The position numbers were made by a program, and so were the translations under genes. From Pseudomonadales bacterium (GTDB lineage: Bacteria > Pseudomonadota > Gammaproteobacteria > Pseudomonadales > GM7GCV1), in NCBI GenBank assembly GCA_965204215.1, contig CBDBDZ010000014.1:1324588-1388587 (forward strand): DNA of 64,000 bases, in the 5' to 3' direction. This document shows positions 6,314 through 64,000 of the stretch, piece by piece. The notes under the pieces were generated by a model. It saw only the letters and a list, made by a program, of their open reading frames with translations. It did not search any database and had not been told where the DNA came from. Position 1 is the first letter of the stretch. Each line of letters opens with the position of its first letter.

Positions 6314-6327
6314 GCGAAATCAATAAC

Positions 6328-12078: not shown

Positions 12079-12094
12079 GGTGCAAAGCTCTCTA

Positions 12095-12304
12095 TCAGAT
12101 ATCGGTGGGTAAATCGACTGATTGATCACCTGAAATTGACTCGCTGGGAACAAACACTTCAAAGCTATCGGTATTGGCATTTTGTTCTGTGCTGTTTTGT
12201 TGTTGCTCATTAGTCGTTGCTTTGTCATTATTTTCTTCATGGGGCTGCTGGGCAAAAACCACCAAAGTTAGCAAAAGGGTAGTCAGGGTGAATAGTTTTA
12301 TCAT
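12095..12304 (-). CDS. Small hypothetical secreted protein (~69 aa)
   Basis: Signal-peptide-like MIKLFTLTTLLLTLVVFAQQ is followed by a Q/N/E-rich linker and the conserved-looking tail DSFEVFVPSESISGDQSVDLPTDI. It lies in line with the upstream envelope genes. The start is chosen at Met14 of the track ORF. Confidence 0.4.
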   Translation of the reverse strand: MIKLFTLTTLLLTLVVFAQQPHEENNDKATTNEQQQNSTEQNANTDSFEVFVPSESISGDQSVDLPTDI

Positions 12305-12321
12305 TGCTGGATGTAGTAGGT

Positions 12322-12355
12322 CTTTAATGCATAAGGTAACCATAATCTGGGTTTA
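12322..12355 (-). repeat. Rep-E motif, degenerate copy with a small internal insertion
   Basis: The minus strand reads TAAACCCAGATTATGgttaccttATGCATTAAAG. The TAA is the stop of the 12353-14491 gene. Confidence 0.4.
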
Positions 12356-17661: not shown

Positions 17662-17718
17662 GCATTTTGAGCGAAAATTTAACGCTGTATTGGCGAGCGC
17701 AGTAATTATGCAAAACTC

Positions 17719-17720
<2 letters not shown>
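17662..17720 (+). repeat. MITE-A solo arm filling the hemB-glnB gap
   Basis: GCATTTTGAGCGAAAATTTAACGCTGTATTGGCGAGCGCAGTAATTATGCAAAACTCTC is the reverse complement of 5882-5950 apart from a CTGCGCTCG duplication there. Confidence 0.75.
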
Positions 17721-18066
<346 letters not shown>

Positions 18067-18210: not shown

Positions 18211-18253
18211 TTTAACGCTGTATTGACGAGCGCAGTAATTATGCAAAACTCTC
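18211..18253 (+). repeat. MITE-A solo arm (partial) overlapping the start of the yihY-family gene
   Basis: TTTAACGCTGTATTGACGAGCGCAGTAATTATGCAAAACTCTC. The ATG at 18241 inside the element terminus is the likely start codon. Confidence 0.7.
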
Positions 18254-28596: not shown

Positions 28597-30430
28597 CAGT
28601 GAGCGTAACAGTCAATGAGGTAAATGATGAACCCTCTTTCACAGTGGGCAATGCCATCACACGAAGTGCGGATACCAACCCTCAAACAGTAACGGCTTTT
28701 ATTACCGATGCAACGCCTGTGGAAGCAGGTCAGACTCTGGCATTCATTGTCAGCAACAATAATAACAGTCTTTTTTCGAGCCAACCGGCAATTGATGCCA
28801 ATGGCACATTGAGCTTTACGTTTGCCAGCGATGCAGCAGGCAGCGCAACGGTTTCAGTAGTTTTGATGGATAATGGCGGTACGGCTAATGGTGGGGATAA
28901 CCTTTCCGATGCTCAAAGCTTTGTGATTACGGCTGCGGGGCCGCCTGCTTTTACGCTTGCGCAGACGACGGTTAATTTAACAGAGGATGAAGATGCTATT
29001 GATCGTTTCACCATAGCTATTACCAATGTCAGTAGCGAATTGGGCGAGACAGGTACGTTTTCGGTGGCAATTGCCTCAGGTTCTATTTTCGCAACGACGG
29101 ATACAGAACCCGAAGTGTCTTTTGATAATGTTGAAGTTATCACTTCGAGAGACTTATCCACAGCGCAAACAGCCACATTATATTTTACTGTCAAGCCAGA
29201 TACTTTCGGTAGCGGTGTTTTGACCATAACCTTAACGCAAGGTGCGCAGCAAATACAACAAGATGTCACAGTCAATGTCACGCAGGCAGCCAATGCACCG
29301 GTTATTGTTGCGTCTTTCCCGTTTGCTGGCGTTGTCACCAACCCGAGAGTTTTTGGTGGTAACATTTACGGACGTAATAACACATCACAGGATTGGTTTG
29401 CTCATAGAAATCAGGTGACTGCCATTCCCGGTGTCAATGGTGATATGGTGACCATTTACAGCACTGAAGAATTTTTGTTTCTATTGAATGCTTTTAGTCC
29501 TGTCAACACTGCTTTTCTGGGCATCACTGAAGGTGTTAATGGAGCAAGCAGAAATGATGCGGATGCAGAGTGGTATTGGCTGTCTGAAGGGACAGAACTA
29601 TTAGCCAGAGGTGGTGCTATCAATGGTCCATCTGATGTAGCACCCGGGTTTTATTTTAGAAATGGTAGTATTTTCGATGAGTTTGATTCTAATTTTTTTA
29701 CTACTCCTGATCGAAATGATGGACCTTTTGTAGGGGCGTTTCTTTTTAATGGTGGCTGGATAGATTTTGCTGCGGCTAACGTGCGTGATGCAGTCTATGA
29801 GTTCCAGGCGCCAGGCACTGCGTTAACCAGTATTGTTGCTGGTACCAGCGTTACTCAAGGCAGCACAGAGCAAACAACGGTTATTACCCTCTCAGGGGCT
29901 GATCTGGATGGTGATAACTTAAGCTGGAGTGCAAGTAGCGACGATGGCAGTGTTAGTCTGGGCACCCCCACGCTTAGTGTGGCAGGGTTATCAGGCGATA
30001 TTCCTGTAAATTTTACACCTGACTCCAATTTTTCAGGTATAGCCACCATTACTGTTACCTTGTCAGCTAATGCAGAGGCAACCTCAGTGACAGTGAGCGT
30101 AACAGTCAATGAGGTAAATAATGAGCCCTCTTTCACAGTGGGCAGTGCCATCACACGAAGTGCGGATACCAACCCTCAAACAGTAACGGCTTTTATTACC
30201 GATGCAACGCCTGTAGAAGCAGGTCAAACTCTGGCATTCATTGTCAGCAACAATAATAACAGTCTTTTTTCGAGCCAACCGGCAATTGATGCCAGTGGCA
30301 CCTTGAGCTTTACGTTTGCCAGCAATGCAGCAGGCAGCGCAACGGTTTCAGTAGTTTTGATGGATAATGGCGGTGGCGATGATTTATCAGATACGCAAAG
30401 CTTTGTGATTACGGCTGTGGCGGCATCGGC
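27472..30430 (+). repeat. Two tandem copies of a ~1.48-kb coding module (Ig-like + lectin-like + two cadherin-like segments)
   Basis: 27472-28948 and 28949-30430 both begin TTTACGCTTGCGCAGACGACGGTTAATTTAACAGAGGATGAAGATGC and end ...CAAAGCTTTGTGATTACGGCTG. The flanks are near-identical while the central ~450 bp is strongly diverged. Confidence 0.85.
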
Positions 30431-33400
30431 TACACTAACGCCAGCAAACCTGATTTTAACAGAAGGCGCGACAGCCAGCTTTACAGTGAGTTTAGGCAGT
30501 CAGCCTAATAACCCGGTAACGGTATCGGTGGCAAATCCAGATACCAGTCAATTAACAGTATCACCTCAGACATTAACATTTTCAACTTCTAATTTTAACA
30601 TAGCCCAGACAGTAACAATAGTAACAGTAGAAAATACAATTGTAGAAGCCAGTGAGACCGTGCCGATTCATTTAAACTTTATCAGCACAGATACGAATTT
30701 TAATACGTTGTCAGATACTGTGAGTGTGGTTATTATTGATAATGATACCGCCACATTTAGCGTAGCTGATGTGACGGTGTCAGAGACAGCAGGCGCTGCG
30801 ACTGTCACTGTTGCGCTGGACTTGCCGATTGAAGGCGGTGCTACACTTACCTTGATGAGTGCAGACTTTGCTCCGGTTGATGCTGCTGCCGGAAGTGATT
30901 ACAGCGCAACCACCGCAACGCTGTTTTTTGCCAGTAACAGCACCACAGCTCAAAGTTTCAGTGTTGGCATTATTGACGATACCCTGGTTGAAAACCTGGT
31001 TGAGGGCACTGAGCAGTTTCGCATTGATATCACTGCGGTTAACCCGGTTGAAGCTATTGCAGCAAGTGCATTTAATCTGGGTGATACGGCGACGGTATCC
31101 ATTACCGATAATGACACCACTACCATCACCATAGCAGATGTAAGTGCAGCAGAAGGTGATGGGCCTAACAATGTGACGGTCACCATTAGCTTGAGTAACC
31201 CGGTTGAGGGCGGACTGACTGCCACCATTGCCAGCAGCGGCAATTCAGCTCTCAGTGGCAGTGATTTTTCAGCACTGAGTCAGGTTATCAGTTTTGCCGA
31301 TAGCAGCACCGCCAGTAGCAGTGTGCAGTTGACTGTTTTAGGTGATGCAATTATTGAAGCAGATGAGACCTTGCAACTGTTTGTTGCCAGTGTTGCCGCA
31401 GCCGAGGCCTCGAACAGCCAGATACTCAGACAAACTGGCACCTTTACTATTGAAAATGATGATTTTGCTGCCATCACCATTGCTGATGCCAGTGGCAGTG
31501 AGTCGTCAGGCACTATCAGTGTCCGCTTTAATGTGAATTTGGCGGTTGCCGGTGGTTTTACCCTGACAGTGCAGAGCGATAGTGGCAGTGCGATAGAAGG
31601 CGTCGACTTTAGCTCTGTTGATTCACAGCAAGTTGCTTTTGCCGGTAGTGCCAATGAAACCCAGACCCTGGTATTGACAGTTACTAACGATACGATTATT
31701 GAGGCTAATGAAACCTTGCGTATTCGTATCAGTGCAGTAAACCCTGGTGTTGCACAGGCTGGCGATTTTAATATTAGCGACACCGCAACGCTGACGATAA
31801 TAAACGATGATACCGCCACATTTAGCGTAGCCGATGTGACGGTGTCAGAGACAGCTGGCGCTGCGACTGTCACTGTTGCGCTGGATTTGCCGATTGAAGG
31901 CGGTGCTACGCTTACCTTGATGAGTGCAGACTTTGCTCCGGTTGATGCCGCTGCTGGCAGCGATTACAGCGCAACCACAGCAACGCTGTTTTTTGCCAGT
32001 AACAGCACCACAGCTCAAAGTTTCAGTGTTGGCATTATTGACGATACCCTGGTTGAAAATCTGGTTGAGGGCACTGAGCAGTTTCGCATTGATATCACTG
32101 CGGTTAACCCGGTTGAAGCTATTGCAGCAAGTGCATTTAATCTGGGTGATACGGCGACGGTATCCATTACCGATAATGACACCACTACCATCACCATAGC
32201 AGATGTAAGTGCAGCAGAAGGTGATGGGCCTAACAATGTGACGGTCACCATTAGCCTGAGTAACCCGGTTGAGGGCGGACTGACTGCCACCATTGCCAGC
32301 AGTGGCAATTCAGCTCTCAGTGGCAGTGATTTTTCAGCACTGAGTCAGGTTATCAGTTTTGCCGATAGCAGCACCGCCAGTAGCAGTGTGCAGTTAACTG
32401 TTTTAGGTGATGCAATCATTGAAGCAGATGAGACCTTGCAACTGTTTGTTGCCAGTGTTGCTGCAGCCGAGGCCTCGAATAGCCAGATACTCAGACAAAC
32501 CGGCACCTTTACTATTGAAAATGATGATTTTGCTACTATTAGTATTGCTGATGTCAGTGCGAGTGAGTCGTCTGGCACTATCAGTATTGGCTTGAGTGTG
32601 GATTTGGCGGTTGCCGGTGGTTTTACCCTGACAGTACAGAGCGATAGTGGCAGTGCGATAGAAGGCGACGACTTTAGCTCTGTTGATTCACAGCAAGTTG
32701 CTTTTGCCGGTAGTGCCAATGAAACCCAGACCCTGGTATTGACAGTTACTAACGATACGATTATTGAAGCCAATGAAACCTTGCGTATTCGTATCAGTGC
32801 AGTCGACCCTGGTGTTGCACTGGCTGGCGATTTTAATATTAGCGACACCGCAACGCTGACGATAATAAACGATGATACCGCCACATTTAGCGTAGCTGAT
32901 GTGACGGTGTCAGAGACAGCTGGCGCTGCGACTGTCACTGTTGCGCTGGATTTGCCGATTGAAGGCGGTGCTACACTTACCTTGATGAGTGCAGACTTTG
33001 CTCCGGTTGATGCTGCTGCTGGCAGCGATTATAGCGCAACCACCGCAACGCTGTTTTTTGCCAGTAACAGCACCACAGCTCAAAGTTTCAGTGTTGGCAT
33101 TATTGACGATACCCTGGTTGAAAACCTGGTTGAGGGCACTGAGCAGTTTCGCATTGATATCACTGCGGTTAACCCGGTTGAAGCTATTGCAGCAAGTGCA
33201 TTTAATCTGGGTGATACGGCGACGCTATTCATTACCGATAATGATACCACTACCATCACCATAGCAGATGTAAGTGCAGCAGAAGGTGATGGGCCTAACA
33301 ATGTGACGGTCACCATTAGCTTGAGTAACCCGGTTGAGGGCGGACTGACTGCCACCATTGCCAGCAGTGGCAATTCAGCTCTCAGTGGCAGTGATTTTTC

Positions 33401-36400
33401 AGCATTGAGTCAGGTTATTAGTTTTGCCGATAGCAGCACTGCCAGTAGCAGTGTGCAGTTAACTATTTTAGGTGATGCAATCATTGAAGCAGATGAGACC
33501 TTGCAACTGTTTGTTGCCAGTGTTGCCGCAGCCGAGGCCTCGAACAGCCAGATACTCAGACAAACTGGCACCTTTACTATTGAAAATGATGATTTTGCTG
33601 CCATCACCATTGCTGATGCCAGTGGCAGTGAGTCGTCAGGCACTATCAGTGTCCGCTTTAATGTGAATTTGGCGGTTGCCGGTGGTTTTACCCTGACAGT
33701 GCAGAGCGATAGTGGCAGTGCGATAGAAGGCGACGACTTTAGCTCTGTTGATTCACAGCAAGTTGCTTTTGCCGGTAGTGCCAATGAAACCCAGACCCTG
33801 GTATTGACAGTTACTAACGATACGATTATTGAAGCCAATGAAACCTTGCGTATTCGTATCAGTGCAGTCGACCCTGGTGTTGCACAGGCTAGTGATTTTA
33901 ATATTAGCGACACCGCAACGCTGACGATAATAAACGATGATACCGCCACATTTAGCGTAGCTGATGTGACGGTGTCAGAGACAGCTGGCGCTGCGACTGT
34001 CACTGTTGCGCTGGATTTGCCGATTGAAGGCGGTGCTACACTTACCTTGATGAGTGCAGACTTTGCTCCGGTTGATGCTGCTGCTGGCAGCGATTACAGC
34101 GCAACCACCGCAACGCTGTTTTTTGCCAGTAACAGCACCACAGCTCAAAGTTTCAGTGTTGGCATTATTGACGATACCCTGGTTGAAAATCTGGTTGAGG
34201 GCACTGAGCAGTTTCGCATTGATATCACTGCGGTTAACCCGGTTGAAGCTATTGCAGCAAGTGCATTTAATCTGGGTGATACGGCGACGGTATCCATTAC
34301 CGATAATGACACCACTACCATCACCATAGCAGATGTAAGTGCAGCAGAAGGTGATGGGCCTAACAATGTGACGGTCACCATTAGCCTGAGTAACCCGGTT
34401 GAGGGCGGACTGACTGCCACCATTGCCAGCAGCGGCAATTCAGCTCTCAGTGGCAGTGATTTTTCAGCACTGAGTCAGGTTATCAGTTTTGCCGATAGCA
34501 GCACCGCCAGTAGCAGTGTGCAGTTGACTGTTTTAGGTGATGCAATCATTGAAGCAGATGAGACCTTGCAACTGTTTGTTGCCAGTGTTGCCGCAGCCGA
34601 GGCCTCGAACAGCCAGATACTCAGACAAACTGGCACCTTTACTATTGAAAATGATGATTTTGCTGCCATCACCATTGCTGATGCCAGTGGCAGTGAGTCG
34701 TCAGGCACTATCAGTGTCCGCTTTAATGTGAATTTGGCGGTTGCCGGTGGTTTTACCCTGACAGTGCAGAGCGATAGTGGCAGTGCGATAGAAGGCGACG
34801 ACTTTAGCTCTGTTGATTCACAGCAAGTTGCTTTTGCCGGTAGTGCCAATGAAACCCAGACCCTGGTATTGACAGTTACTAACGATACGATTATTGAAGC
34901 CAATGAAACCTTGCGTATTCGTATCAGTGCAGTAAACCCTGGTGTTGCACTGGCTAGCGATTTTAATATTAGCGACACCGCAACGCTGACGATAATAAAC
35001 GATGATACCGCTACCTTTAGCGTAGCTGATGTGACGGTGTCAGAGACAGCTGGCGCTGCGACTGTCACTGTTGCGCTGGATTTGCCGATTGAAGGCGGTG
35101 CTACACTTACCTTGATGAGTGCAGACTTTGCTCCGGTTGATGCTGCTGCTGGCAGCGATTACAGCGCAACCACCGCAACGCTGTTTTTTGCCAGTAACAG
35201 CACCACAGCTCAAAGTTTCAGTGTTGGCATTATTGACGATACCCTGGTTGAAAATCTGGTTGAGGGCACTGAGCAATTTCGTATTGATATCAGCGCGGTT
35301 AACCCGGTTGAAGCTATTGCAGCAAGTGCGTTTAATCTGGGTGATACGGCGACGGTATCCATTACCGATAATGACACCACTACCATCACCATAGCAGATG
35401 TAAGTGCAGCAGAAGGCAATGGGCCTAACAATGTGACGGTCACCATTAGCTTGAGTAACCCGGTTGAGGGCGGACTGACTGCGACCATTGCCAGCAGTGA
35501 AAACTCGGCTCTCAGTGGCAGTGACTTTTCAACACTGAGTCAGGTTATCAGTTTTGCCGATAGCAGCACCGCCAGTAGCAGTGTGCAGTTAACTATTTTA
35601 GGTGATGCAATCATTGAAGCAGATGAGACCTTGCAACTGTTTGTTGCCAGTGTTGCTGCAGCCGAGGCCTCGAATAGCCAGATACTCAGACAAACTGGCA
35701 CCTTTACTATTGAAAATGATGATTTTGCTGCCATCACCATTGCTGATGTCAGTGGCAGTGAGTCTGGGACTATCAGTATTGGCTTGAGTGTGAATTTGGC
35801 GGTTGCCGGTGGGTTTACCCTGACAGTGCAGAGCGATAGTGGTAGCGCGATAGAAGGCGACGACTTTAGCTCTGTTGATTCACAGCAAGTTGCTTTTGCC
35901 GGTAGTGCCAATGAAACCCAGACCCTGGTATTGACAGTTACTAACGATACGATTATTGAAGCCAATGAAACCTTGCGTATTCGTATCAGTGCAGTCGACC
36001 CTGGTGTTGCACTGGCTGGCGATTTTAATATTAGCGACACCGCAACGCTGACGATAATAAACGATGATACCGCCACATTTAGCGTAGCTGATGTGACGGT
36101 GTCAGAGACAGCTGGCGCTGCCACTATTTCTGTTACTCTGGACTTGCCGATTGAAGGAGGGGCTACGCTTACCTTGATGAGTGCAGACTTTGCTCCGGTT
36201 GATGCCGCTGCTGGCAGCGATTATAGCGCAACCACCGCAACGCTGTTTTTTGCCAGTAACAGCACCACAGCTCAAAGTTTCAGTGTTGGCATTATTGACG
36301 ATACCCTGGTTGAAAACCTGGTTGAGGGCACTGAGCAATTTCGTATTGATATCAGCGCGGTTAACCCGGTTGAAGCTATTGCAGCAAGTGCGTTTAATCT

Positions 36401-39400
36401 GGGTGATACGGCGACGGTATTCATTACCGATAATGATACCACTACCATCACCGTAGCAGATGTGAGTGCAGCAGAAGGCAATGTGTCTAACAATGTGACG
36501 GTCACCATTAGCCTGAGTAACCCGGTTGAGGGCGGACTGACTGCGACCATTGCCAGCAGTGAAAACTCGGCTCTCAGTGGCGATGACTTTTCAGCACTGA
36601 GTCAGGTTATCAGTTTTGCCGATAGCAGCACTGCCAGTAGCAGTGTGCAGTTGACTGTTTTAGGTGATGCAATTATTGAAGCAGATGAGACCTTGCAACT
36701 GTTTGTTGCCAGTGTTGCCGCAGCCGAGGCCTCGAATAGCCAGATACTCAGACAAACTGGTACCTTTAGCATTGTAAATGATGATTTTGCTGCCATCACC
36801 ATTGATGATGTCAGTGGCAGTGAGTCTGGGACTATCAGTATTGGCTTGAGTGTGAATTTGGCGGTTGCCGGTGGTTTTACCCTGACAGTACAGAGCGATA
36901 GTGGCAGTGCAGTAGAGGGCGTCGACTTTAGCTCTGCTGACTCTCAGCAGGTTGCTTTTGCCGGTAGTGCCAATGAAACCCAGACCCTGGTATTGACAGT
37001 TACTAACGATACGATTATTGAGGCCAATGAAACCTTGCGTATTCGTATCAGTGCAGTCGACCCTGGTGTTGCACAGGCTGGCGATTTTAATATTAGCGAC
37101 ACCGCAACGCTGACGATAATAAACGATGATACCGCTACCTTTAGCGTAGCTGATGTGACGGTGTCAGAGACAGCTGGCGCTGCGACTGTCACTGTTGCGC
37201 TGGATTTGCCGATTGAAGGCGGTGCTACACTTACCTTGATGAGTGCAGACTTTGCTCCGGTTGATGCTGCTGCTGGCAGCGATTACAGCGCAACCACCGC
37301 AACGCTGTTTTTTGCCAGTAACAGCACCACAGCTCAAAGTTTCAGTGTTGGCATTATTGACGATACCCTGGTTGAAAATCTGGTTGAGGGCACTGAGCAG
37401 TTTCGCATTGATATCACTGCGGTTAACCCGGTTGAAGCTATTGCAGCAAGTGCATTTAATCTGGGTGATACGGCGACGGTATCCATTACCGATAATGACA
37501 CCACTACCATCACCATAGCAGATGTAAGTGCAGCAGAAGGCAATGGGCCTAACAATGTGACGGTCACCATTAGCTTGAGTAACCCGGTTGAGGGCGGACT
37601 GACAGCAACCATTGCCAGCAGTGGCAATTCAGCTCTCAGTGGCAGTGATTTTTCAGCACTGAGTCAGGTTATCAGTTTTGCCGATAGCAGCACCGCCAGT
37701 AGCAGTGTGCAGTTAACTGTTTTAGGTGATGCAATTATTGAAGCAGATGAGACCTTGCAACTGTTTGTTGCCAGTGTTGCCGCAGCCGAGGCCTCGAACA
37801 GCCAGATACTCAGACAAACTGGCACCTTTACTATTGAAAATGATGATTTTGCTGCCATCACCATTGATGATGTCAGTGGCAGTGAGTCTGGGACTATCAG
37901 TATTGGCTTGAGTGTGAATTTGGCGGTTGCCGGTGGTTTTACCCTGACAGTACAGAGCGATAGTGGCAGTGCGATAGAAGGCGTCGACTTTAGCTCTGTT
38001 GATTCACAGCAAGTTGCTTTTGCCGGTAGTGCCAATGAAACCCAGACCCTGGTATTGACAGTTACTAACGATACGATTATTGAAGCCAATGAAACCTTGC
38101 GTATTCGTATCAGTGCAGTCGACCCTGGTGTTGCACAGGCTGGCGATTTTAATATTAGCGACACCGCAACGCTGACGATAATAAACGATGATAGCGCCAC
38201 ATTTAGCGTAGCTGATGTGACGGTGTCAGAGACAGCTGGCGCTGCGACTGTCACTGTTGCGCTGGATTTGCCGATTGAAGGCGGTGCTACACTTACCTTG
38301 ATGAGTGCAGACTTTGCTCCGGTTGATGCTGCTGCCGGAAGTGATTACAGCGCAACCACAGCAACGCTGTTTTTTGCCAGTAACAGCACCACAGCTCAAA
38401 GTTTCAGTGTTGGCATTATTGACGATACCCTGGTTGAAAACCTGGTTGAGGGCACTGAGCAGTTTCGCATTGATATCACTGCGGTTAACCCGGTTGAAGC
38501 TATTGCAGCAAGTGCGTTTAATCTGGGTGATACGGCGACGGTATCCATTACCGATAATGACACCACTACCATCACCATAGCAGATGTAAGTGCAGCAGAA
38601 GGTGATGGGCCTAACAATGTGACGGTCACCATTAGCCTGAGTAACCCGGTTGAGGGCGGACTGACTGCGACCATTGCCAGCAGCGGCAATTCAGCTCTCA
38701 GTGGCAGTGATTTTTCAGCACTGAGTCAGGTTATCAGTTTTGCCGATAGCAGCACCGCCAGTAGCAGTGTGCAGTTAACTGTTTTAGGTGATGCAATTAT
38801 TGAAGCAGATGAGACCTTGCAACTGTTTGTTGCCAGTGTTGCCGCAGCCGAGGCCTCGAATAGCCAGATACTCAGACAGACTGGGACTTTTAGCATTGAA
38901 AATGATGATTTTGCTGCCATCACCATTGCTGATGTCAGTGGCAGTGAGTCTGGGACTATCAGTATTGGCTTGAGTGTGAATTTGGCGGTTGCCGGTGGTT
39001 TTACCCTGACAGTACAGAGCGATAGTGGCAGTGCAGTAGAGGGCGTCGACTTTAGCTCTGCTGACTCGCAGCAGGTTGCTTTTGCCGGTAGTGCCAATGA
39101 AACCCAGACCCTGGTATTGACACTTACTAACGATACGGTTATTGAGGCCAATGAAACCTTGCGTATTCGTATCAGTGCAGTCGAGCCTGGTGTTGCACAG
39201 GCTGGCGATTTTAATATTAGCGACACCGCAACGCTGACGATAATAAACGATGATAGCGCCACATTTAGCGTAGCTGATGTGACGGTGTCAGAGACAGCTG
39301 GCGCTGCCACTATTTCTGTTACTCTGGACTTGCCGATTGAAGGAGGGGCTACGCTTACCTTGATGAGTGCAGACTTTGCTCCGGTTGATGCCGCTGCTGG

Positions 39401-42400
39401 CAGCGATTATAGCGCAACCACCGCAACGCTGTTTTTTGCCAGTAACAGCACCACAGCTCAAAGTTTCAGTGTTGGCATTATTGACGATACCCTGGTTGAA
39501 AACCTGGTTGAGGGCACTGAGCAATTTCGTATTGATATCAGCGCGGTTAACCCGGTTGAAGCTATTGCAGCAAGTGCGTTTAATCTGGGTGATACGGCGA
39601 CGGTATTCATTACCGATAATGATACCACTACCATCACCATAGCAGATGTAAGTGCAGCAGAAGGTGATGGGCCTAACAATGTGACGGTCACCATTAGCTT
39701 GAGTAACCCGGTTGAGGGCGGACTGACTGCGACCATTGCCAGCAGTGAAAACTCGGCTCTCAGTGGCAGTGACTTTTCAGCACTGAGTCAGGTTATCAGT
39801 TTTGCCGATAGCAGCACCGCCAGTAGCAGTGTGCAGTTAACTATTTTAGGTGATGCAATCATTGAAGCAGATGAGACCTTGCAACTGTTTGTTGCCAGTG
39901 TTGCTGCAGCCGAGGCCTCGAATAGCCAGATACTCAGACAAACTGGCACCTTTACTATTGAAAATGATGATTTTGCTGCCATCACCATTGCTGATGTCAG
40001 TGGCAGTGAGTCTGGGACTATCAGTATTGGCTTGAGTGTGAATTTGGCGGTTGCCGGTGGGTTTACCCTGACAGTGCAGAGCGATAGTGGTAGCGCGATA
40101 GAAGGCGACGACTTTAGCTCTGTTGATTCACAGCAAGTTGCTTTTGCCGGTAGTGCCAATGAAACCCAGACCCTGGTATTGACAGTTACTAACGATACGA
40201 CTATTGAGGCCAATGAAACCTTGCGTATTCGTATCAGTGCAGTCGAGCCTGGTGTTGCACAGGCTGGCGATTTTAATATTAGCGACACCGCAACGCTGAC
40301 GATAATAAACGATGATAGCGCCACATTTAGCGTAGCTGATGTGACGGTGTCAGAGACAGCTGGCGCTGCCACTATTTCTGTTACTCTGGACTTGCCGATT
40401 GAAGGAGGGGCTACGCTTACCTTGATGAGTGCAGACTTTGCTCCGGTTGATGCCGCTGCTGGCAGCGATTATAGCGCAACCACCGCAACGCTGTTTTTTG
40501 CCAGTAACAGCACCACAGCTCAAAGTTTCAGTGTTGGCATTATTGACGATACCCTGGTTGAAAACCTGGTTGAGGGCACTGAGCAATTTCGTATTGATAT
40601 CAGCGCGGTTAACCCGGTTGAAGCTATTGCAGCAAGTGCGTTTAATCTGGGTGATACGGCGACGGTATTCATTACCGATAATGATACCACTACCATCACC
40701 GTAGCAGATGTGAGTGCAGCAGAAGGCAATGTGTCTAACAATGTGACGGTCACCATTAGCTTGAGTAACCCGGTTGAGGGCGGACTGACTGCGACCATTG
40801 CCAGCAGTGGCAATTCAGCTCTCAGTGGCAGTGATTTTTCAGCACTGAGTCAGGTTATCAGTTTTGCCGATAGCAGCACCGCCAGTAGCAGTGTGCAGTT
40901 AACTGTTTTAGGTGATGCAATTATTGAAGCAGATGAGACCTTGCAACTGTTTGTTGCCAGTGTTGCCGCAGCCGAGGCCTCGAACAGCCAGATACTCAGA
41001 CAAACTGGCACCTTTACTATTGAAAATGATGATTTTGCTGCCATCACCATTGCTGATGCCAGTGGCAGTGAGTCGTCAGGCACTATCAGTGTCCGCTTTA
41101 ATGTGAATTTGGCGGTTGCCGGTGGTTTTACCCTGACAGTACAGAGCGATAGTGGCAGTGCAGTAGAGGGCGTCGACTTTAGCTCTGTTGATTCACAGCA
41201 AGTTGCTTTTGCCGGTAGTGCCAATGAAACCCAGACCCTGGTATTGACAGTTACTAACGATACGATTATTGAAGCCAATGAAACCTTGCGTATTCGTATC
41301 AGTGCAGTAAACCCTGGTGTTGCACTGGCTAGTGATTTTAATATTAGCGACACCGCAACGCTGACGATAATAAACGATGATAGCGCCACATTTAGCGTAG
41401 CTGATGTGGCGGTGTCAGAGACAGCTGGCGCTGCCACTATTTCTGTTACTCTGGACTTGCCGATTGAAGGTGGGGCTACGCTTACCTTGATGAGTGCAGA
41501 CTTTGCTCCGGTTGATGCCGCTGCCGGAAGTGATTACAGCGCAACCACAGCAACGCTGTTTTTTGCCAGTAACAGCACCACAGCTCAAAGTTTCAGTGTT
41601 GGCATTATTGACGATACCCTGGTTGAAAATCTGGTTGAGGGCACTGAGCAATTTCGTATTGATATCAGCGCGGTTAACCCGGTTGAAGCTATTGCAGCAA
41701 GTGCGTTTAATCTGGGTGATACGGCGACGGTATCCATTACCGATAATGACACCACTACCATCACCATAGCAGATGTAAGTGCAGCAGAAGGTGATGGGCC
41801 TAACAATGTGACGGTCACCATTAGCTTGAGTAACCCGGTTGAGGGCGGACTGACTGCGACCATTGCCAGCAGTGGCAATTCAGCTCTCAGTGGCAGTGAT
41901 TTTTCAGCACTGAGTCAGGTTATCAGTTTTGCCGATAGCAGCACCGCCAGTAGCAGTGTGCAGTTAACTGTTTTAGGTGATGCAATTATTGAAGCAGATG
42001 AGACCTTGCAACTGTTTGTTGCCAGTGTTGCCGCAGCCGAGGCCTCGAACAGCCAGATACTCAGACAAACTGGCACCTTTACTATTGAAAATGATGATTT
42101 TGCTGCCATCACCATTGCTGATGCCAGTGGCAGTGAGTCGTCAGGCACTATCAGTGTCCGCTTTAATGTGAATTTGGCGGTTGCCGGTGGTTTTACCCTG
42201 ACAGTACAGAGCGATAGTGGCAGTGCGATAGAAGGCGACGACTTTAGCTCTGTTGATTCACAGCAAGTTGCTTTTGCCGGTAGTGCCAATGAAACCCAGA
42301 CCCTGGTATTGACAGTTACTAACGATACGATTATTGAGGCCAATGAAACCTTGCGTATTCGTATCAGTGCAGTCGACCCTGGTGTTGCACAGGCTGGCGA

Positions 42401-45400
42401 TTTTAATATTAGCGACACCGCAACGCTGACGATAATAAACGATGATAGCGCCACATTTAGCGTAGCTGATGTGACGGTGTCAGAGACAGCTGGCAATACC
42501 AATATCACTGTTTCCTTAAATCTGCCGATTGAAGGTGGGGCTACGCTTACCTTGATGAGTGCAGACTTTGCTCCGGTTGATGCTGCTGCCGGAAGTGATT
42601 ACAGCGCAACCACAGCAACGCTGTTTTTTGCCAGTAACAGCACCACAGCTCAAAGTTTCAGTGTTGGCATTATTGACGATACCCTGGTTGAAAATCTGGT
42701 TGAGGGCACTGAGCAGTTTCGCATTGATATCACTGCGGTTAACCCGGTTGAAGCTATTGCAGCAAGTGCATTTAATCTGGGTGATACGGCGACGGTATCC
42801 ATTACCGATAATGACACCACTACCATCACCATAGCAGATGTAAGTGCAGCAGAAGGTGATGGGCCTAACAATGTGACGGTCACCATTAGCCTGAGTAACC
42901 CGGTTGAGGGCGGACTGACTGCGACCATTGCCAGCAGCGGCAATTCAGCTCTCAGTGGCAGTGATTTTTCAGCACTGAGTCAGGTTATCAGTTTTGCCGA
43001 TAGCAGCACTGCCAGTAGCAGTGTGCAGTTAACTGTTTTAGGTGATGCAATTATTGAAGCAGATGAGACCTTGCAACTGTTTGTTGCCAGTGTTGCCGCA
43101 GCCGAGGCCTCGAACAGCCAGATACTCAGACAAACTGGTACCTTTAGCATTGTAAATGATGATTTTGCTACTATTAGTATTGCTGATGTCAGTGCGAGTG
43201 AGTCGTCTGGCACTATCAGTATTCAGTTTAGTGTGGATTTGGCGGTTGCCGGTGGGTTTACCCTGACAGTACAGAGCGATAGTGGCAGTGCGATAGAAGG
43301 CGACGACTTTAGCTCTGTTGATTCACAGCAAGTTGCTTTTGCCGGTAGTGCCAATGAAACCCAGACCCTGGTATTGACAGTTACTAACGATACGACTATT
43401 GAAGCCAATGAAACCTTGCGTATTCGTATCAGTGCAGTCGACCCTGGTGTTGCACTGGCTGGCGATTTTAATATTAGCGACACCGCAACGCTGACGATAA
43501 TAAACGATGATACCGCTACCTTTAGCGTAGCTGATGTGACGGTGTCAGAGACAGCAGGCGCTGCGACTGTCACTGTTGCGCTGGACTTGCCGATTGAAGG
43601 AGGGGCTACACTTACCTTGATGAGTGCAGACTTTGCTCCGGTTGATGCCGCTGCTGGCAGCGATTACAGCGCAACCACAGCAACGCTGTTTTTTGCCAGT
43701 AACAGCACCACAGCTCAAAGTTTCAGTGTTGGCATTATTGACGATACCCTGGTTGAAAACCTGGTTGAGGGCACTGAGCAATTTCGTATTGATATCACTG
43801 CGGTTAACCCGGTTGAAGCTATTGCAGCAAGTGCGTTTAATCTGGGTGGTACGGCGACGGTATTCATTACCGATAATGATACCACTACCATCACCGTAGC
43901 AGATGTGAGTGCAGCAGAAGGCAATGTGTCTAACAATGTGACGGTCACCATTAGCTTGAGTAACCCGGTTGAGGGCGGACTGACTGCGACCATTGCCAGC
44001 AGTGAAAACTCGGCTCTCAGTGGCAGTGACTTTTCAGCACTGAGTCAGGTTATCAGTTTTGCCGATAGCAGCACCGCCAGTAGCAGTGTGCAGTTAACTA
44101 TTTTAGGTGATGCAATCATTGAAGCAGATGAGACCTTGCAACTGTTTGTTGCCAGTGTTGCTGCAGCCGAGGCCTCGAATAGCCAGATACTCAGACAAAC
44201 TGGCACCTTTACTATTGAAAATGATGATTTTGCTGCCATCACCATTGCTGATGTCAGTGGCAGTGAGTCTGGGACTATCAGTATTGGCTTGAGTGTGAAT
44301 TTGGCGGTTGCCGGTGGGTTTACCCTGACAGTGCAGAGCGATAGTGGTAGCGCGATAGAAGGCGACGACTTTAGCTCTGTTGATTCACAGCAAGTTGCTT
44401 TTGCCGGTAGTGCCAATGAAACCCAGACCCTGGTATTGACAGTTACTAACGATACGACTATTGAGGCCAATGAAACCTTGCGTATTCGTATCAGTGCAGT
44501 CGAGCCTGGTGTTGCACAGGCTGGCGATTTTAATATTAGCGACACCGCAACGCTGACGATAATAAACGATGATAGCGCCACATTTAGCGTAGCTGATGTG
44601 ACGGTGTCAGAGACAGCTGGCGCTGCCACTATTTCTGTTACTCTGGACTTGCCGATTGAAGGAGGGGCTACGCTTACCTTGATGAGTGCAGACTTTGCTC
44701 CGGTTGATGCCGCTGCTGGCAGCGATTATAGCGCAACCACCGCAACGCTGTTTTTTGCCAGTAACAGCACCACAGCTCAAAGTTTCAGTGTTGGCATTAT
44801 TGACGATACCCTGGTTGAAAACCTGGTTGAGGGCACTGAGCAATTTCGTATTGATATCAGCGCGGTTAACCCGGTTGAAGCTATTGCAGCAAGTGCGTTT
44901 AATCTGGGTGATACGGCGACGGTATTCATTACCGATAATGATACCACTACCATCACCGTAGCAGATGTGAGTGCAGCAGAAGGCAATGTGTCTAACAATG
45001 TGACGGTCACCATTAGCTTGAGTAACCCGGTTGAGGGCGGACTGACTGCGACCATTGCCAGCAGTGGCAATTCAGCTCTCAGTGGCAGTGATTTTTCAGC
45101 ACTGAGTCAGGTTATCAGTTTTGCCGATAGCAGCACCGCCAGTAGCAGTGTGCAGTTAACTGTTTTAGGTGATGCAATCATTGAAGCAGATGAGACCTTG
45201 CAACTGTTTGTTGCCAGTGTTGCCGCAGCCGAGGCCTCGAATAGCCAGATACTCAGACAAACTGGTACCTTTAGCATTGTAAATGATGATTTTGCCAACA
45301 TTAGCATTGCCGATGCCAGTGGCAGTGAATCGGCTACTATCAGTATTCAGTTTAGTGTGGATTTGGCGGTTGCCGGTGGTTTTACCCTGACAGTACAGAG

Positions 45401-48400
45401 CGATAGTGGCAGTGCAGTAGAGGGCGTCGACTTTAGCTCTGCTGACTCGCAGCAGGTTGCTTTTGCCGGTAGTGCCAATGAAACCCAGACCCTGGTATTG
45501 ACAGTTACTAACGATACGATTATTGAGGCCAATGAAACCTTGCGTATTCGTATCAGTGCAGTCGACCCTGGTGTTGCACAGGCTGACGATTTTAATATTG
45601 CTGATAGCGCTACGGTCACCATCATTAACGATGATACCGCTACCTTTAGCGTAGCTGATGTGACGGTGTCAGAGACAGCTGGCAATGCCACTATTTCTGT
45701 TACTCTGGACTTGCCGATTGAAGGCGGTGCTACGCTTACCTTGATGAGTGCAGACTTTGCTCCGGTTGATGCTGCTGCCGGAAGTGATTACAGCGCAACC
45801 ACAGCAACGCTGTTTTTTGCCAGTAACAGCACCACAGCTCAAAGTTTCAGTGTTGGCATTATTGACGATACCCTGGTTGAAAATCTGGTTGAGGGCACTG
45901 AGCAGTTTCGCATTGATATCACTGCGGTTAACCCGGTTGAAGCTATTGCAGCAAGTGCATTTAATCTGGGTGATACGGCGACGGTATCCATTACCGATAA
46001 TGACACCACTACCATCACCATAGCAGATGTAAGTGCAGCAGAAGGCAATGTGTCTAACAATGTGACGGTCACCATTAGCTTGAGTAACCCGGTTGAGGGC
46101 GGACTGACTGCCACCATTGCCAGCAGTGGCAATTCAGCTCTCAGTGGCAGTGATTTTTCAGCACTGAGTCAGGTTATCAGTTTTGCCGATAGCAGCACTG
46201 CCAGTAGCAGTGTGCAGTTAACTGTTTTAGGTGATGCAATTATTGAAGCAGATGAGACCTTGCAACTGTTTGTTGCCAATGTTGCCGCAGCCGAGGCCTC
46301 GAACAGCCAGATACTCAGACAAACTGGCACCTTTACTATTGAAAATGATGATTTTGCTGCCATCACCATTGCTGATGCCAGTGGCAGTGAGTCTGGCACT
46401 ATCAATATTGGCTTGAGTGTGGATTTAGCTGTTGCCGGTGGTTTTACCCTGACAGTACAGAGCGATAGTGGCAGTGCGATAGAAGGCGACGACTTTAGCT
46501 CTGTTGATTCACAGCAAGTTGCTTTTGTCGGTAGTGCCAATGAAACCCAGACCCTGGTATTGACACTTACTAACGATACGATTATTGAAGCCAATGAAAC
46601 CTTGCGTATTCGTATCAGTGCAGTCGACCCTGGTGTTGCACAGGCTGGCGATTTTAATATTAGCGACACCGCAACGCTGACGATAATAAACGATGATACC
46701 GCTACCTTTAGCGTAGCTGATGTGACGGTGTCAGAGACAGCTGGCAATGCCAATATCACTGTTTCCTTAAATCTGCCGATTGAAGGTGGGGCTACGCTTA
46801 CCTTGATGAGTGCAGACTTTGCTCCGGTTGATGCTGCTGCCGGAAGTGATTACAGCGCAACCACAGCAACGCTGTTTTTTGCCAGTAACAGCACCACAGC
46901 TCAAAGTTTCAGTGTTGGTATTATTGACGATACCCTGGTTGAAAATCTGGTTGAGGGCACTGAGCAGTTTCGCATTGATATCACTGCGGTTAACCCGGTT
47001 GAAGCTATTGCAGCAAGTGCATTTAATCTGGGTGATACGGCGACGGTATCCATTACCGATAATGATACCACTACCATCACCGTAGCAGATGTGAGTGCAG
47101 CAGAAGGTGATGGGTCTAACAATGTGACGGTCACCATTAGCCTGAGTAACCCGGTTGAGGGCGGACTGACTGCCACCATTGCCAGCAGTGAAAACTCGGC
47201 TCTCAGTGGCGATGACTTTTTAGCACTGAGTCAGGTTATCAGTTTTGCCGATAGCAGCACTGCCAGTAGCAGTGTGCAGTTAACTGTTTTAGGTGATGCA
47301 ATTATTGAAGCAGATGAGACCTTGCAACTGTTTGTTGCCAGTGTTGCCGCAGCCGAGGCCTCGAACAGCCAGATACTCAGACAAACTGGCACCTTTACTA
47401 TTGAAAATGATGATTTTGCTGCCATCACCATTGATGATGTCAGTGGCAGTGAGTCTGGGACTATCAGTATTGGCTTGAGTGTGAATTTGGCGGTTGCCGG
47501 TGGTTTTACCCTGACAGTACAGAGCGATAGTGGCAGTGCGATAGAAGGCGTCGACTTTAGCTCTGTTGATTCACAGCAAGTTGCTTTTGCCGGTAGTGCC
47601 AATGAAACTCAAACTTTTGTTATAATCCCTGTGGAAGATAATATCGTTGAACGTAATGAAACACTACTGATAAGTATTGATATATCAGACTCTGGAATTG
47701 CGTTGGTTAGCGACTTTACAACGGATACGGCTGAAATTACCATTAATAATAATGATACGGCTACATTTATGGTAAATGATGCCTCTGAAGCGGAGAGTGC
47801 AGGCTCGATAACTGTCAGTGTCACATTGGATAACCCAATTGATGGAGGTGCCAGTGTTACAGTGGCTACCATGTTTATTGCTAACGATGCATCAGCTAAT
47901 GACTTTGTGACTTCTACTGTGATTGTTTTCTTTTCGGATGATAGTACCGCTACACAACTGATTAATATTATGCTTAATGACGAAAATGTGGTTGAAGCTG
48001 ATGAAAGGGCAGAAATTCGAATATTAGCGGTCACACCCACATTTGAGATAGCTTCTGGCTTTTTTAATAGTAACGACACTGGAACGATTACTATAATCAA
48101 TGATGATGCTGCAAGTTTTACTGTTGTCGATATTAGCCCGGTTGAAGGAGATAATACAGCTACAATAAGTGTGATAGTAGAATTAAGCGCCCCTGTTGAA
48201 GGCGGGGTGAGCGCGACTTACCAAACCATTGGTGTCGATACAGAATCTGATGACTTTGTCGCATTTACTCAAACTGTTTTTTATGCGGATACTAGTACTA
48301 CTGATGATACCCTGGCACTGGTTATTTTGGGTGATACTCTTGTTGAGGCCGATGAGTCTTTGCTTATTAGCCTGGTTTCCATTAACCCGGCTGAAGCTTC

Positions 48401-51400
48401 ACCAGCGTTTTTTAGCAGCAATACGGGAACTATTGTTATTGTAAATGATGACATGATTACAGTGTCGATCAGCTCAAACGGTGATGCCGCAGAATCGAAT
48501 ACCCAAACCAGTAGTTTTAATGTATCGCTATCCAATGCTTCTGATCAGGTTATCGTGATTGGCTATTCAATCGAAGGAGTAGCGCAAAATATTACTGATT
48601 ATCAGGAAATTGGCATGACTATTGAATTTGCTGCTAACGCTTTTAATCAGATAATTACTATAACGCCTGTTGATGACAACCTTGTAGAAGGTAATGAGAC
48701 AGTGCAATTGCGTTTAAATACGGCGATTCAAGGGCCATTGGATGTTATCAGTATCAGTAGTAGTGCTGATGTAGCGTCATTGCTGATTATTGATAATGAC
48801 GAATTAGTCGCCAGTATTGAAGCTGTTGATACGACAGCGTCAGAGGTCAATGCTGGTATAGAGACAGCCATTTTTGAAATAGGGTTAGAAGCACCCAGTG
48901 TAAATGTCACTAATTTTGAGTATACAGCACTAAGCATTAGTAGTGCATCCAACGGGCTGGATTATGCCACTTTGACCTTTACAGCTACCATTCCGGCAAT
49001 GAGTCTGACTACAACAGTGGTAATCACCGCATTAGCCGATGATATTGGTGAAGGTACAGAAATCTTGCGTTTGCGCCTTGATACAATAACTGGAGTTCCG
49101 ACAGGTATTACTCAAAGCATATCAACTAATGCTGACACTATAAGTATTTTTGATGAAGATGTTGATTTGGATTTATCTATCAGTTCGATAGACGCTACGG
49201 CGACAGAAGATACAGATGTTGAAAGCAGAGAGGCTGTATTCAGCATTGGTTTTGATAACAATATTGTTATCACACAGGATTTATCCGTATCTTATTCAAT
49301 TGGCGGTACTGCCATTAATGGGGAAGATTACGATGCTATTGCCGGTTTGGCGGTGATTAGTGCTTTTGATAACAGCACCACCATAGTTATTAGCCCGGTT
49401 GATGATTTCCTAACCGAATCGCCTGAAAGTGTTGAATTGACTTTGTCAACTAATGCAGGCGCTCCAGCAGGGGTTTCTGTTTTTAATTCCACCAACAGCA
49501 CAGCTGTGGTAGAAATTATGGACAATGATAATGATCTGATTCTGTCATTGGTAGCTGATGATGCTTCAGCGGGGGAAGATATGAACAATGGAACTGGTGC
49601 AAATACAGGTGTATTTGTTATATTCCTTGGAGTACGTGACCAAAACGTCTCATCAACCACTTTGACGATAGATTATTCGATACGCGGGACAGCTACTAAT
49701 GGCAGTGACTATGAGATTATCAGTTCACAAGTTGCTTTGCCCGCTAATCAAAACAGTATTGCTATTATTATTACGCCAGAAGATGATAATATTGGCGAAG
49801 GTTTGGAAATGGTTGATTTATTACTGGAACCCAATGGTATAGCAGGCATACCTGATGGTGTAACCATCACCCCATCCACGAGCAATGCGGTTATAGAAAT
49901 TGAAGATGAAGACAGATTGGTTATTCTGTTTATCCAATCTGATGATCCCACGGCTATGGAGGATAATGATACAGCAGTTTTCAATATTGCACTTGATAGA
50001 CAATTGGCAACTGCGCTATCCATTGAGTATTTAATACTGGGTGAAGCAGTCAACAATACAGACTATAATGCTCTTGCCGATAATGGTATATTCCCGGCGT
50101 TGTCAACGGCAATCAATTTGACGGTTACACCGATACCCGATGACATCGGCGAGGGCAATGAGTCCATTGTTATAAGATTAACTTCTTTGAGCGGCGCACC
50201 CGTTGGCGTTAGCGTCCTGATTAGTACGACTCAAGACACTCAGGAAAATATTCTTGTCGATGATCCTCTTGATACCGATTTAAGAATATCGGTGTTACTG
50301 CTTGATCCCACTGCAATGGAAGGAGATGCTTCACTGGCAGAGAGTGCCACGATACGATTGCGAATTGATCAGGTTGGAGGTATCGACAGGACATTGAGTC
50401 GGGATATTCTCATAGAATATGCACTTATTAATGGCTTGCTGGGATTTGCTGACAATGGCGTTGACTATGTTTCTATTGGAACTTCGCGAATTATCTCTGA
50501 AGGTTCAACATTTATTGATATTGAAATCAGTCCTGTTGATGATGCTGCCATTGAAGGTAGTGAATCCATTCAATTACAGCTGGGTAATATTAGTGGACAG
50601 CCACAAGGCGTAACTCTCATTGCCTCTGCGGCCAATACGGTTGAAGCGACCTTGTTCGATGATGATAACACCTTAACCATTAATATTGAGGTGACGGATG
50701 GAAGTAGTGCTGAACCAGCATTGAGAAATGATACGGGTCAATTCAGAGTCTTTACAGAGAGTGGTTCCATAGTAGCAACTGACTTGACACTATTCTATTC
50801 TTTGGAAGGGCTTCCCAGCGCCGGAAATGACTACCAGACTATTGCGTTGCAAAATATGATTGAAGCGGGTACGACAGATTTCTCGGTTACTATTACACCG
50901 CTGGATGATAATATTGCCGAGGGTGTGGAAACGCTGATAATACGCTTAAATACTTTGACTGGCGCCCCTTCAGGCGTAAATGTTGTACTTTCCACTTTTG
51001 TTGCGATGATTGCTATTGATGATGCTGATACTTCCGTTGCAGTGAGTCTGATTTCAAATGATAGCAGCGCCCTGGAAAGCCCGCTGGATGTAGCGACATA
51101 CAACATCAGCTTTCGAGATCCAAACAATGTTGATGCTATCCTGGAAATAGCTACAGATACGCAATTGACATACAGCATTTTGGGTACTGCTATTGGTGGA
51201 TCAGGTTTTGATTATGTGTCGTTACCTACAAGCAGTTTAATCACTGCGGGGAGCACTGAGTTAGACTTTGTGTTAACGCCTATCAACGATATTATTGCCG
51301 AAGGTGATGAGAGTGTTGTCATCAGTTTGCAAAGCATTACGGGCTTACCTAATGGTGTTAACGCTTTCTTTATTGACCCATCTAATATAAGCTTAATCAT

Positions 51401-63400: not shown

Positions 63401-64000
63401 TGGTTCGCCTGATAGTACTTCGGTGACCTTTTCCATAAGCTCAATCTTCAGTACGACATTGACATTGTATTATTCGTTACAAGGAAACGCTGATAATGGA
63501 CTGGATTACGAGCTTATACCTACTACTGTTGTGTTCCCGGCAGGTAGTACTTCACAGTTTTTAATCATTACAAGCATTGATGACAATCTTATTGAAAACA
63601 TTCAAGAGCAGTTAATCATTAGTCTTGATACAGTAGTGGGGACTCCTGTTGGAACGGTTGTCTCTTTTGATACGGATCAGACTCTTAATATTATGAGTAA
63701 TGAAACGAGTGTCGCATTAAATTTGAGTGTTGTCGATGCGACAGCAACCGAAGATTTAATTGACAATGCGGTGTATCGTATAGCTACTGATGGGTCTATA
63801 GCATTTGATGATCCTATTTTGCTAACTTATACATTATCTGGAAGTGCGAGCAATAGTTTTGATTATTCTGCATTAATTGGCAGGTTGTTATTCCCTGCTA
63901 AAACCACTTTTACAGACATTAGCATTGTACCAATCAGTGATACTATTGGTGAAGGTGATGAAACGGTGGTACTCCAGCTGACTTCAATTGCGACTCCGCC
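28506..64000 (+). CDS. Giant Calx-beta repeat protein, main reading frame (frame 3), open to the window end (3'-partial, more than 11,800 codons)
   Basis: No stop occurs in the frame whose codon starts are divisible by 3, from 28506 onwards. I hand-translated from 28506 to about 51.4 kb and spot-checked further on. The ORF track lists no frame-3 plus-strand ORF here, as expected if ORFs without a stop are omitted. The translation gives cadherin-like modules (VNEVNDEPSF) and then roughly 90 Calx-beta domains (G.DY...F......D...EG.E....L). Confidence 0.85.
30741..47608 (+). repeat. Homogenised tandem array: ~15.85 units of 1062/1065 bp, each encoding three Calx-beta domains (~355 aa)
   Basis: The same landmark (GTGCAGACTTTGCTCC) recurs at 30859, 31924, 32989, 34054, 35119, 36181, 37243, 38305, 39367, 40429, 41494, 42559, 43624, 44686, 45748 and 46810. 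The spacings are 1065 x4, 1062 x5, 1065 x3 and 1062 x3. The units differ only at scattered cassette-like sites. Confidence 0.95.
47609..64000 (+). repeat. Divergent Calx-beta domain array (~45 domains, period ~355-400 bp), protein-level repeats only
   Basis: The D..(I/L).EG.E motif recurs at about 48687, 49050, 49415, 49795, 50150, 50552, 50918, 51298, 51655, 52035, 52410, 52770, 53155, 53525, 53878, 54238, 54612 and onward. Each is preceded by Y.(I/L).G(T/S)A..G.DY. Confidence 0.85.

Follow-up and report, generated by a model that had tools for sequence, protein, structure and literature searches.

A 64,000-nucleotide stretch of genomic DNA from a Pseudomonadales bacterium (contig CBDBDZ010000014.1, positions 1,324,588–1,388,587 of the forward strand; hereafter, the window) contains part of a giant gene in which 16.9 kb is occupied by a head-to-tail array of 1062/1065-bp units, each encoding three Calx-beta domains. 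We consider it likely that this array is the homogenized extender, or stalk, of a giant Sec-exported, Calx-beta-rich surface or secreted adhesin of an uncultured-type marine gammaproteobacterium. A BLASTN comparison of the first unit (U01) with the window yielded 16 matches at 93.4–98.8% identity, which together covered positions 30741–47608, and no unit match at E≤1e-5 was found in the window outside the array. Tandem Repeats Finder (TRF; maximum period, 2000) recovered the array at 30742–47608 with a period of 1062, 15.9 copies, 95% matches, 0% indels and a score of 29,953. The first-pass annotation of this DNA had counted 15 full units plus about 0.85 of a unit over the same positions, and both searches, including the tandem-repeat search that it had proposed, bear out this count. 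The unit lengths were, in order, 1065 bp (four units), 1062 bp (five), 1065 bp (three), 1062 bp (three) and 917 bp (0.86 of a unit), and every unit start was in frame with the long open reading frame (ORF). When that frame was scanned at lags of 1065 and 1062, DNA self-identity was 0.9–1.0 across approximately 30.75–46.55 kb, against a background of about 0.3 elsewhere. The two length classes differ by one codon at alignment columns 762–764 (SGSESSGT versus SGSE-SGT), which is the serine codon to which the difference had originally been traced. Pairwise DNA identity between units averaged 95.5% (range, 91.9–98.7%). The earlier description of the units as near-identical was thus too strong: all 16 are distinct, and even the closest pair differs at 14 sites.

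The array ends inside a domain rather than between two domains. At its right edge, unit identity stops at unit column 917, generating a hybrid C domain. In the degenerate triplet that follows (A′B′C′), some resemblance to the unit is retained, the A profile still being the best match for A′ and the B profile for B′. This degenerate triplet may be an old, non-homogenized relative of the unit.

Analysis with Pfam revealed three Calx-beta stretches (PF03160) in each 355-aa unit, scoring 100.8 bits against a cut-off of 27. These domains (A, B and C) were 34.5–41.6% identical to one another in protein and had no detectable DNA similarity, whereas the units are 95.5% identical in DNA. Two proposals of the first-pass annotation, that each unit is a triplet of clearly different Calx-beta domains and that the triplet, not the single domain, is what is homogenized, are therefore well founded. 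An AlphaFold2 model of the unit, built from a 64-sequence alignment, contained three beta-sandwiches with a predicted local distance difference test score of 90.2. The best Foldseek matches to this model were the tandem CBD12 domains of NCX1 and CALX, with E values between 5e-14 and 1e-11, individual CBD1 domains aligned at template-modeling scores of 0.77–0.81 with root-mean-square deviations of 2.5–4.5 Å, and a further match was 6xi3, the extender tetra-repeat of a large adhesin. By sequence profile and by model, the unit domains have the Calx-beta fold. In an alignment with NCX1 CBD1, the unit kept the acidic motifs IIDD..E and DxD, and the aspartate/glutamate columns 80, 88, 91, 125, 202, 206, 209, 241, 317, 321 and 324 were at least 90% conserved across the 64 homologues; the conserved acidic positions were invariant among the window units. 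An iterated hidden Markov model (HMM) parse identified 94 Calx-like domains in the part of the gene that lies in the window, of which 48 belong to the array, one precedes it and 45 follow. The 45 downstream domains were about 30% identical to one another at every lag. Their amino acid identity of about 30%, set against 95.5% DNA identity between units, agrees with the earlier expectation that the array would be more homogeneous than the region downstream. An ancient three-domain periodicity downstream of the array was considered and rejected, because identity was flat at about 30% over lags and only the single degenerate A′B′C′ triplet follows the array.

The differences among units indicate how the array has evolved. 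A total of 140 of the 1065 alignment columns were variable, 80 of them at third codon positions; most variable sites carried just two alleles, and 101 (72%) were common to at least two units. Mean nonsynonymous divergence (dN) among units was 0.023 and mean synonymous divergence (dS) was 0.121, with a dN/dS of 0.19, and no amino acid differences were found at unit residues 31–95 even though the proportion of synonymous differences (pS) in this region was 0.13–0.19. These results show that every unit is under purifying selection. Diversifying selection on the variable patches was also considered but was rejected, as the ratio of nonsynonymous to synonymous proportions (pN/pS) did not exceed 0.66 in any 20-codon window. 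Considering the substantial synonymous divergence together with the purifying selection, the array is not a fresh amplification.

All four gametes were present in 2,426 of the 3,655 informative site pairs (66%), and the Hudson–Kaplan minimum number of recombination events (Rm) among units was at least 30. Linkage disequilibrium (LD) decreased from an r2 of 0.52 below 10 bp to 0.12 at 60–100 bp, and blocks of variants recurred in differing combinations in non-adjacent units. Adjacent units were 95.7% identical, as compared to 95.5% for all pairs, so that identity did not decay along the array. This combination of mosaic structure and LD pattern is the signature of repeated short-tract exchange, that is, gene conversion, among units. 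Any two units compared in register had in common a tract of exact identity that measured 62 bp or more, with a median of 151 bp. In E. coli, approximately 25–30 bp are needed for efficient RecA-dependent recombination, and the tracts in the array are thus above the length at which such recombination is efficient. The first-pass annotation had offered recent expansion or ongoing concerted evolution as the source of the high identity. Concerted evolution is supported by the shared blocks, the 66% of site pairs failing the four-gamete test, the Rm of at least 30 and the decay of LD within about 60 bp; by contrast, recent expansion is contradicted by a mean dS of 0.12 and by the fact that no two units are identical. 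Identity at a lag of four units was 96.3%, compared with 95.5±0.3% in permutations (uncorrected P=0.006), and in the segment spanning U05–U16 (35001–47608), U05, U09 and U13 were 97.6–98.0% identical. We take this only as a hint of a four-unit higher-order repeat of about 4.25 kb.

A second array provided independent evidence that this variation is real. Among 5.8 billion proteins, the sole close relative of the unit was a 253-aa fragment encoded on an ENA long-read contig, ctg49504_2x_l (L001). This contig is 10,727 bp long, lies wholly inside an array of the same kind and contains 10 units; as both of its ends are within the array, it is informative about unit arrangement and not about copy number. 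At the 101 informative sites, all 998 of the 998 readable L001 alleles were alleles present in the window, and L001 differed at 0.22% of the sites that are invariant in the window. However, no register reproduced the order of the window array (informative-site match, 0.53–0.66), and no L001 unit was the same as any window unit (best matches, 0.74–0.89). L001 is therefore a second array drawn from the same allele pool in another arrangement, and belongs either to another strain or to a paralogous locus. The sharing of alleles in a different order supports the conclusion that the variants and their shuffling are biologically real.

The array also differs from its surroundings in base composition. 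Its GC content was 0.49 and its GC content at third codon positions (GC3) was 0.439 (0.43–0.47 for the three domains), compared to a GC3 of 0.325±0.020 for 15 downstream 1065-nt blocks of the giant gene and 0.363±0.036 (maximum, 0.433) for 20 flanking ORFs. No other gene or block of the window reached the GC3 of the array, and GC3 dropped sharply at the right edge. A similar step was seen in L083, a contig encoding a relative of the protein that is described below, where GC3 was 0.64 in array domains and 0.50 in non-array Calx domains, although each array amounts to roughly one independent observation in this comparison. S (G or C) alleles were weakly over-represented among the array polymorphisms (60 versus 41 sites, P=0.07). 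Biased gene conversion or foreign origin may account for the GC3 step. The excess in the two arrays fits GC-biased gene conversion as put forward for bacteria (PMC4450053), and it is possible, if rather doubtful, that short-tract GC-biased conversion between units maintains both the mosaic and the raised GC3 of the array, with the cassettes behaving as a small recombining population. The more general idea that GC content rises with the degree of homogenization was rejected, since the 88%-identical duplication in the N-terminal region of the gene has an ordinary GC3 of 0.33–0.37.

To account for these observations, we propose that the 48 array domains and at least 46 other Calx-like domains would be beta-sandwich beads, probably stiffened by Ca2+ at the conserved acidic clusters near domain junctions, and that together the beads would make up a rod with a length of several hundred nanometres, keeping ligand-binding modules at a distance from the cell. 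The 1062/1065-bp three-domain cassette would be one recombination unit: RecA-type unequal recombination or replication slippage would add or remove whole cassettes with the frame kept, and frequent short-tract gene conversion would hold the units about 95% alike and shuffle a limited, old allele pool into mosaics. The long exact in-register tracts in all unit pairs imply that whole cassettes can be gained or lost in frame. It was previously reported that repeats of high DNA identity allow the genes of surface proteins to recombine internally and the proteins to vary in length (PMC8201768, PMC9704523), that Ca2+ bound at linkers stiffens adhesin extender repeats (PMC7493085, PMC4083281), and that Pseudoalteromonas tunicata needs BapP, which combines a predicted Sec signal peptide with Calx-beta and Big_9 repeats, to form Ca2+-dependent biofilms (PMC12153261). 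In our case, we infer adhesin function, rigidification by Ca2+, change in copy number and the recombination pathway.

Several points weigh against this interpretation. Copy-number variation between strains is a prediction from the structure of the array, and Ca2+ binding by the array domains is suggested by conserved residues only. Part of the mosaic could stem from exchange involving other strains, or from errors made in the consensus of a repeat assembly. A frame break near position 28529, in the 5′ part of the gene, may be a lesion of an inactive gene or pseudogene, or an assembly error. The possible lectin-like head of the protein corresponds to sub-threshold matches and is a lead, not a finding. 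No type I secretion system (T1SS) genes, that is, for an ABC transporter, a membrane fusion protein or a TolC-like protein, were found in the 26 kb upstream, and the C-terminus, with any anchor or secretion signal, lies beyond the window, which the gene leaves at position 63998. Membership of the RTX/T1SS adhesins is not supported by those parts that can be tested, namely the Sec-like N-terminus and the upstream region devoid of T1SS genes.

We weighed three other explanations against a homogenized adhesin stalk. Assembly is known to be at risk of error where 95%-identical units are repeated over 17 kb, and the array might accordingly be an artefact of assembly or polishing, with a different true number of units (collapsed or inflated) and a mosaic produced by reads misplaced during consensus. 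The 1-nt frame break shows that the assembly may hold indel errors, and L001, the sole independent contig, does not have the unit order of the window. We nevertheless regard an artefact as improbable. The 16 units are all distinct, with at least 14 site differences per pair, so that long reads can place them; all are in frame, in a reading frame that is stop-free over 11,831 codons; and the length of the source contig, 1.43 Mb, points to assembly from long reads. The bias of the variants toward third codon positions, together with a dN/dS of 0.19, indicates that they are biological and not errors, and the same alleles and blocks are present in an independent 2x long-read contig over 10 consecutive units, with 0.22% differences at invariant sites.

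The overall identity of 95.5% and the sharp array edges would also be expected if one cassette had been amplified in a recent burst and the copies had then accumulated independent point mutations without inter-unit exchange. This explanation appears very improbable to us, considering that 72% of the variable sites are common among units in conflicting combinations, that four gametes occur in 2,426 of 3,655 site pairs with an Rm of at least 30, that LD decays with distance and that a recent burst would not have left time for a dS as large as 0.12. Moreover, identity is flat along the window array, whereas the unrelated L083 array does show the decay expected from stepwise duplication. Alternatively, the mosaic may have arisen mainly by recombination with the arrays of other strains or with paralogous arrays, the GC-rich cassette being foreign. 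L001 does represent a second array with the same allele pool, from another strain or a paralogue, the array GC3 of 0.439 is above that of all genes and blocks of the window, as it might be in imported DNA, and the mostly two-allele sites fit a few diverged parental cassette types. However, LD decays over tens of base pairs and blocks are common to non-adjacent units, so that repeated exchange between units is needed wherever the alleles arose. The same GC3 excess in the unrelated L083 array (0.64 versus 0.50) would require a foreign origin twice, and no donor-like sequence more than 42% identical was found among 1.84 billion representative proteins. For these reasons, we give import little weight, and we favor an old stalk array kept homogeneous by exchange among its own units.

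The features of the giant gene are listed in Table 1. Its start is the ATG at position 26449, and at least 12,516 codons of the gene are within the window; the frame that contains the array is open from position 28506 to the window end and is stop-free for 11,831 codons. The N-terminus, as read by eye, resembles a classical hydrophobic signal peptide ending in AYA-Q, and no retention module was matched in it by Pfam or NCBIfam. A module of the N-terminal region is tandemly duplicated (27471–28880 versus 28949–30374; period, 1478 bp; 87.8% identity over 1,434 bp). A lectin-like segment of about 180 aa within it resembles the carbohydrate-recognition domain of DC-SIGN weakly, at sub-threshold E values of 0.36–0.7, and no relative of the N-terminal region was found among GTDB representative genomes. 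An alignment of the two module copies placed the frame break at a 1-nt deletion near 28529 (28520–28535), where CCTG-CCTCAAT corresponds to CCTGACTCCAAT in the downstream copy; the site is not a homopolymer run. The split ORF encodes 715 aa, and a protein from the 1.43-Mb NCBI/ENA contig (database entry P0103) has exactly this sequence, indicating that the frame break is present in the deposited assembly.

Table 1. Parts of the giant gene and of its Calx-beta array in the window.
Feature	Position	Strand	Remarks
5′ part of giant gene	26449..28596	+	Signal-peptide-like N-terminus (MNKLIFLSTWVAKLCLLYLLEMTQAYAQ); Pfam Big_1; copy 1 of ~490-aa module
Gene continuation, +1 frame	28506..30740	+	Module copy 2 (possible C-type-lectin-like segment, Big_9/tandem-95); one divergent Calx-like domain directly before array
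Full units U01–U15, 1065/1062 bp	30741..46691	+	BLASTN, TRF, Pfam; domains A 122, B 116, C 116/117 aa
16th unit, incomplete (A, B and C up to residue ~70)	46692..47608	+	Identity break inside domain C
Divergent tail of hybrid C, then degenerate A′B′C′ triplet	47609..48800	+	37% aa identity to unit
~42 more divergent Calx-beta-like domains	48801..63998	+	~30% pairwise identity; without three-domain periodicity; runs off window end

On the minus strand of the array (31280–46759), an antisense ORF with a GTG start (194–197 aa) was observed in each successive unit, with interruptions in U06, U12 and U14. We rejected it as a gene, since it most likely arises simply because the sense sequence is repeated. 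The 26 kb upstream of the giant gene contain 20 ORFs, which are housekeeping genes (including pgsA-like, ftsK, lolA, rarA, hemB, leuS, holA and rnt) and one transposase gene. The best match of LeuS among GTDB species representatives was 66% identical (Microbulbifer), and the top matches came from marine Cellvibrionales and Alteromonadales; by this measure, the host appears to be a marine gammaproteobacterium without a close relative among those representatives. Two repeats were noted among these genes. A 479-bp direct repeat, 99.6% identical between 8949–9427 and 11319–11797, flanks the DDE transposase ORF (9527..11185, minus strand) and looks like an insertion-sequence-related duplication amid housekeeping genes. 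An intergenic repeat of about 45–85 bp, 88–96% identical and in both direct and inverted orientation (5882–5963, 17648–17723 and 18211–18257), may be an element of the repetitive extragenic palindromic (REP) type.

Homogenized arrays were also found in related proteins. A HMMER search of 1.84 billion representative proteins with the unit yielded 11,477 matches at E≤0.001, none of them more than 42% identical, and we scanned the 150 best-scoring matches by lag for arrays at least 80% identical. Such arrays were present in 80 of the 150. Units of about one domain predominated (84 arrays), followed by units of about two (22 arrays), about three (12 arrays, window excluded) and about four domains (two arrays). 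The other three-domain arrays comprised 2–3.2 copies, against 15.9 in the window. Repeats may have been collapsed in many of those assemblies. At the DNA level, L083, which encodes a protein with 37% identity to the unit, was found to carry a three-domain array of its own: the period is about 1024 bp, with about 8.7 copies within positions 5296–14192, and identity, at 93.9% for lag 1, declines to 76.5% by lag 8. The three L083 domains were about 69.5% identical to each other in DNA. We rejected orthology of the window and L083 triplets, because all three L083 domain types scored best against domain C, indicating an independent origin. The same contig carries a 288-bp-period array of the Cadherin_4/Big_9 type at 1–2637 (about 94% identity), and another contig, L086, which is noisy, carries a single-domain 343-bp array of more than 21.8 kb at 1–21833 (about 82% identity). 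No close relative of the unit was detected in JGI metagenomes, in which the one match, at 31% identity, was a protein without an array (L082). Taken together, homogenized arrays, multi-domain ones included, are a regular feature of giant Calx-beta proteins, and the window array is notable for its copy number and its flat mosaic structure. We also considered that a triplet unit might serve to keep neighboring domains less than 40% identical and thereby counter misfolding, but this notion was weakened by the finding that 84 of 121 arrays in relatives repeat one domain at 80–99% identity.

The window array represents a very large and clean case of concerted evolution within one bacterial gene, with 48 domains in 16.9 kb, in which the segment that is homogenized (three domains) is clearly distinct from the segment that folds (one domain). 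This case demonstrates that an array of this kind can be an ancient mosaic under selection, as opposed to a set of newly duplicated copies. A first, approximate view of their frequency comes from the survey: about half of the giant Calx-beta proteins examined had homogenized arrays, and about 30% of the arrays were multi-domain. Annotators should accept gene lengths and copy numbers at loci of this type only where long reads span them. The GC3 step offers a lead on biased gene conversion in bacteria that can be tested at little cost and, if biased conversion is indeed its cause, adhesin arrays would serve as intragenic reporters of conversion tract length and GC bias in uncultured bacteria. 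The accepted working of such adhesins is unchanged by our results, the array being a large but fairly ordinary example of a repeat stalk.

Among known systems, the Periscope Proteins (SasG/Aap E-G5, Rib/alpha C, Sgo_0707 SHIRT and CdrA; PMC8201768, PMC9704523) resemble the window gene in that a large exported bacterial protein, with non-repetitive modules at its N-terminal end, contains tandem folded domains of high DNA identity, an ideal substrate for in-frame intragenic recombination. In SasG and Aap, as in the window, the repeat unit is composite (E plus G5) and not a single domain. By contrast, the window unit consists of three Calx-beta domains (355 aa) and is present 16 times in a gene of more than 12,500 codons, and its copies form an old recombining mosaic at 95.5% identity where about 100% is typical of the named examples. 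That class is defined by length variation between strains, which for the window array is a prediction. The host of the window gene is no pathogen but an environmental marine gammaproteobacterium, and the anchor end of the protein lies beyond the window.

The RTX/T1SS adhesins (MpIBP, LapA, SiiE and the Marinobacter adhesin whose extender is PDB 6xi3; PMC7493085) likewise use long runs of beta-sandwiches as a Ca2+-stiffened spacer and include marine gammaproteobacterial hosts. In MpIBP, region II comprises about 120 identical 104-aa BIg repeats (PMC4083281, PMC5550230), which, like the window units, are nearly identical in DNA. The domains of these adhesins are BIg domains, as opposed to the Calx-beta domains (PF03160) and three-domain unit of the window gene, and they possess a T1SS retention module where the window gene has a Sec-like signal peptide and no upstream T1SS genes. 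BapP (PMC12153261) is similar to the window gene in its predicted Sec signal, its Calx-beta and Big_9-type repeats, its marine gammaproteobacterial host and its predicted role as a Ca2+-dependent adhesin. However, BapP is a 1,600-aa protein with 12 divergent repeats and an N-terminal beta-propeller, for which a homogenized array has not been reported, whereas the window gene has at least 94 Calx-like domains, 48 of them homogenized. The proteins of L083, L086 and the survey belong to the same protein class and have arrays at least 80% identical, with a unit identity to the window of at most 42%. Finally, titin super-repeats, the megasatellites in adhesin genes of Candida glabrata (PMC2566889) and the homogenized repeats of spidroins (PMC3933166) are eukaryotic analogues, by analogy only: they differ in kingdom, fold and recombination machinery, but they too consist of long in-frame coding units, sometimes multi-domain, that are kept similar by intragenic recombination, and they too belong to structural or adhesion proteins.

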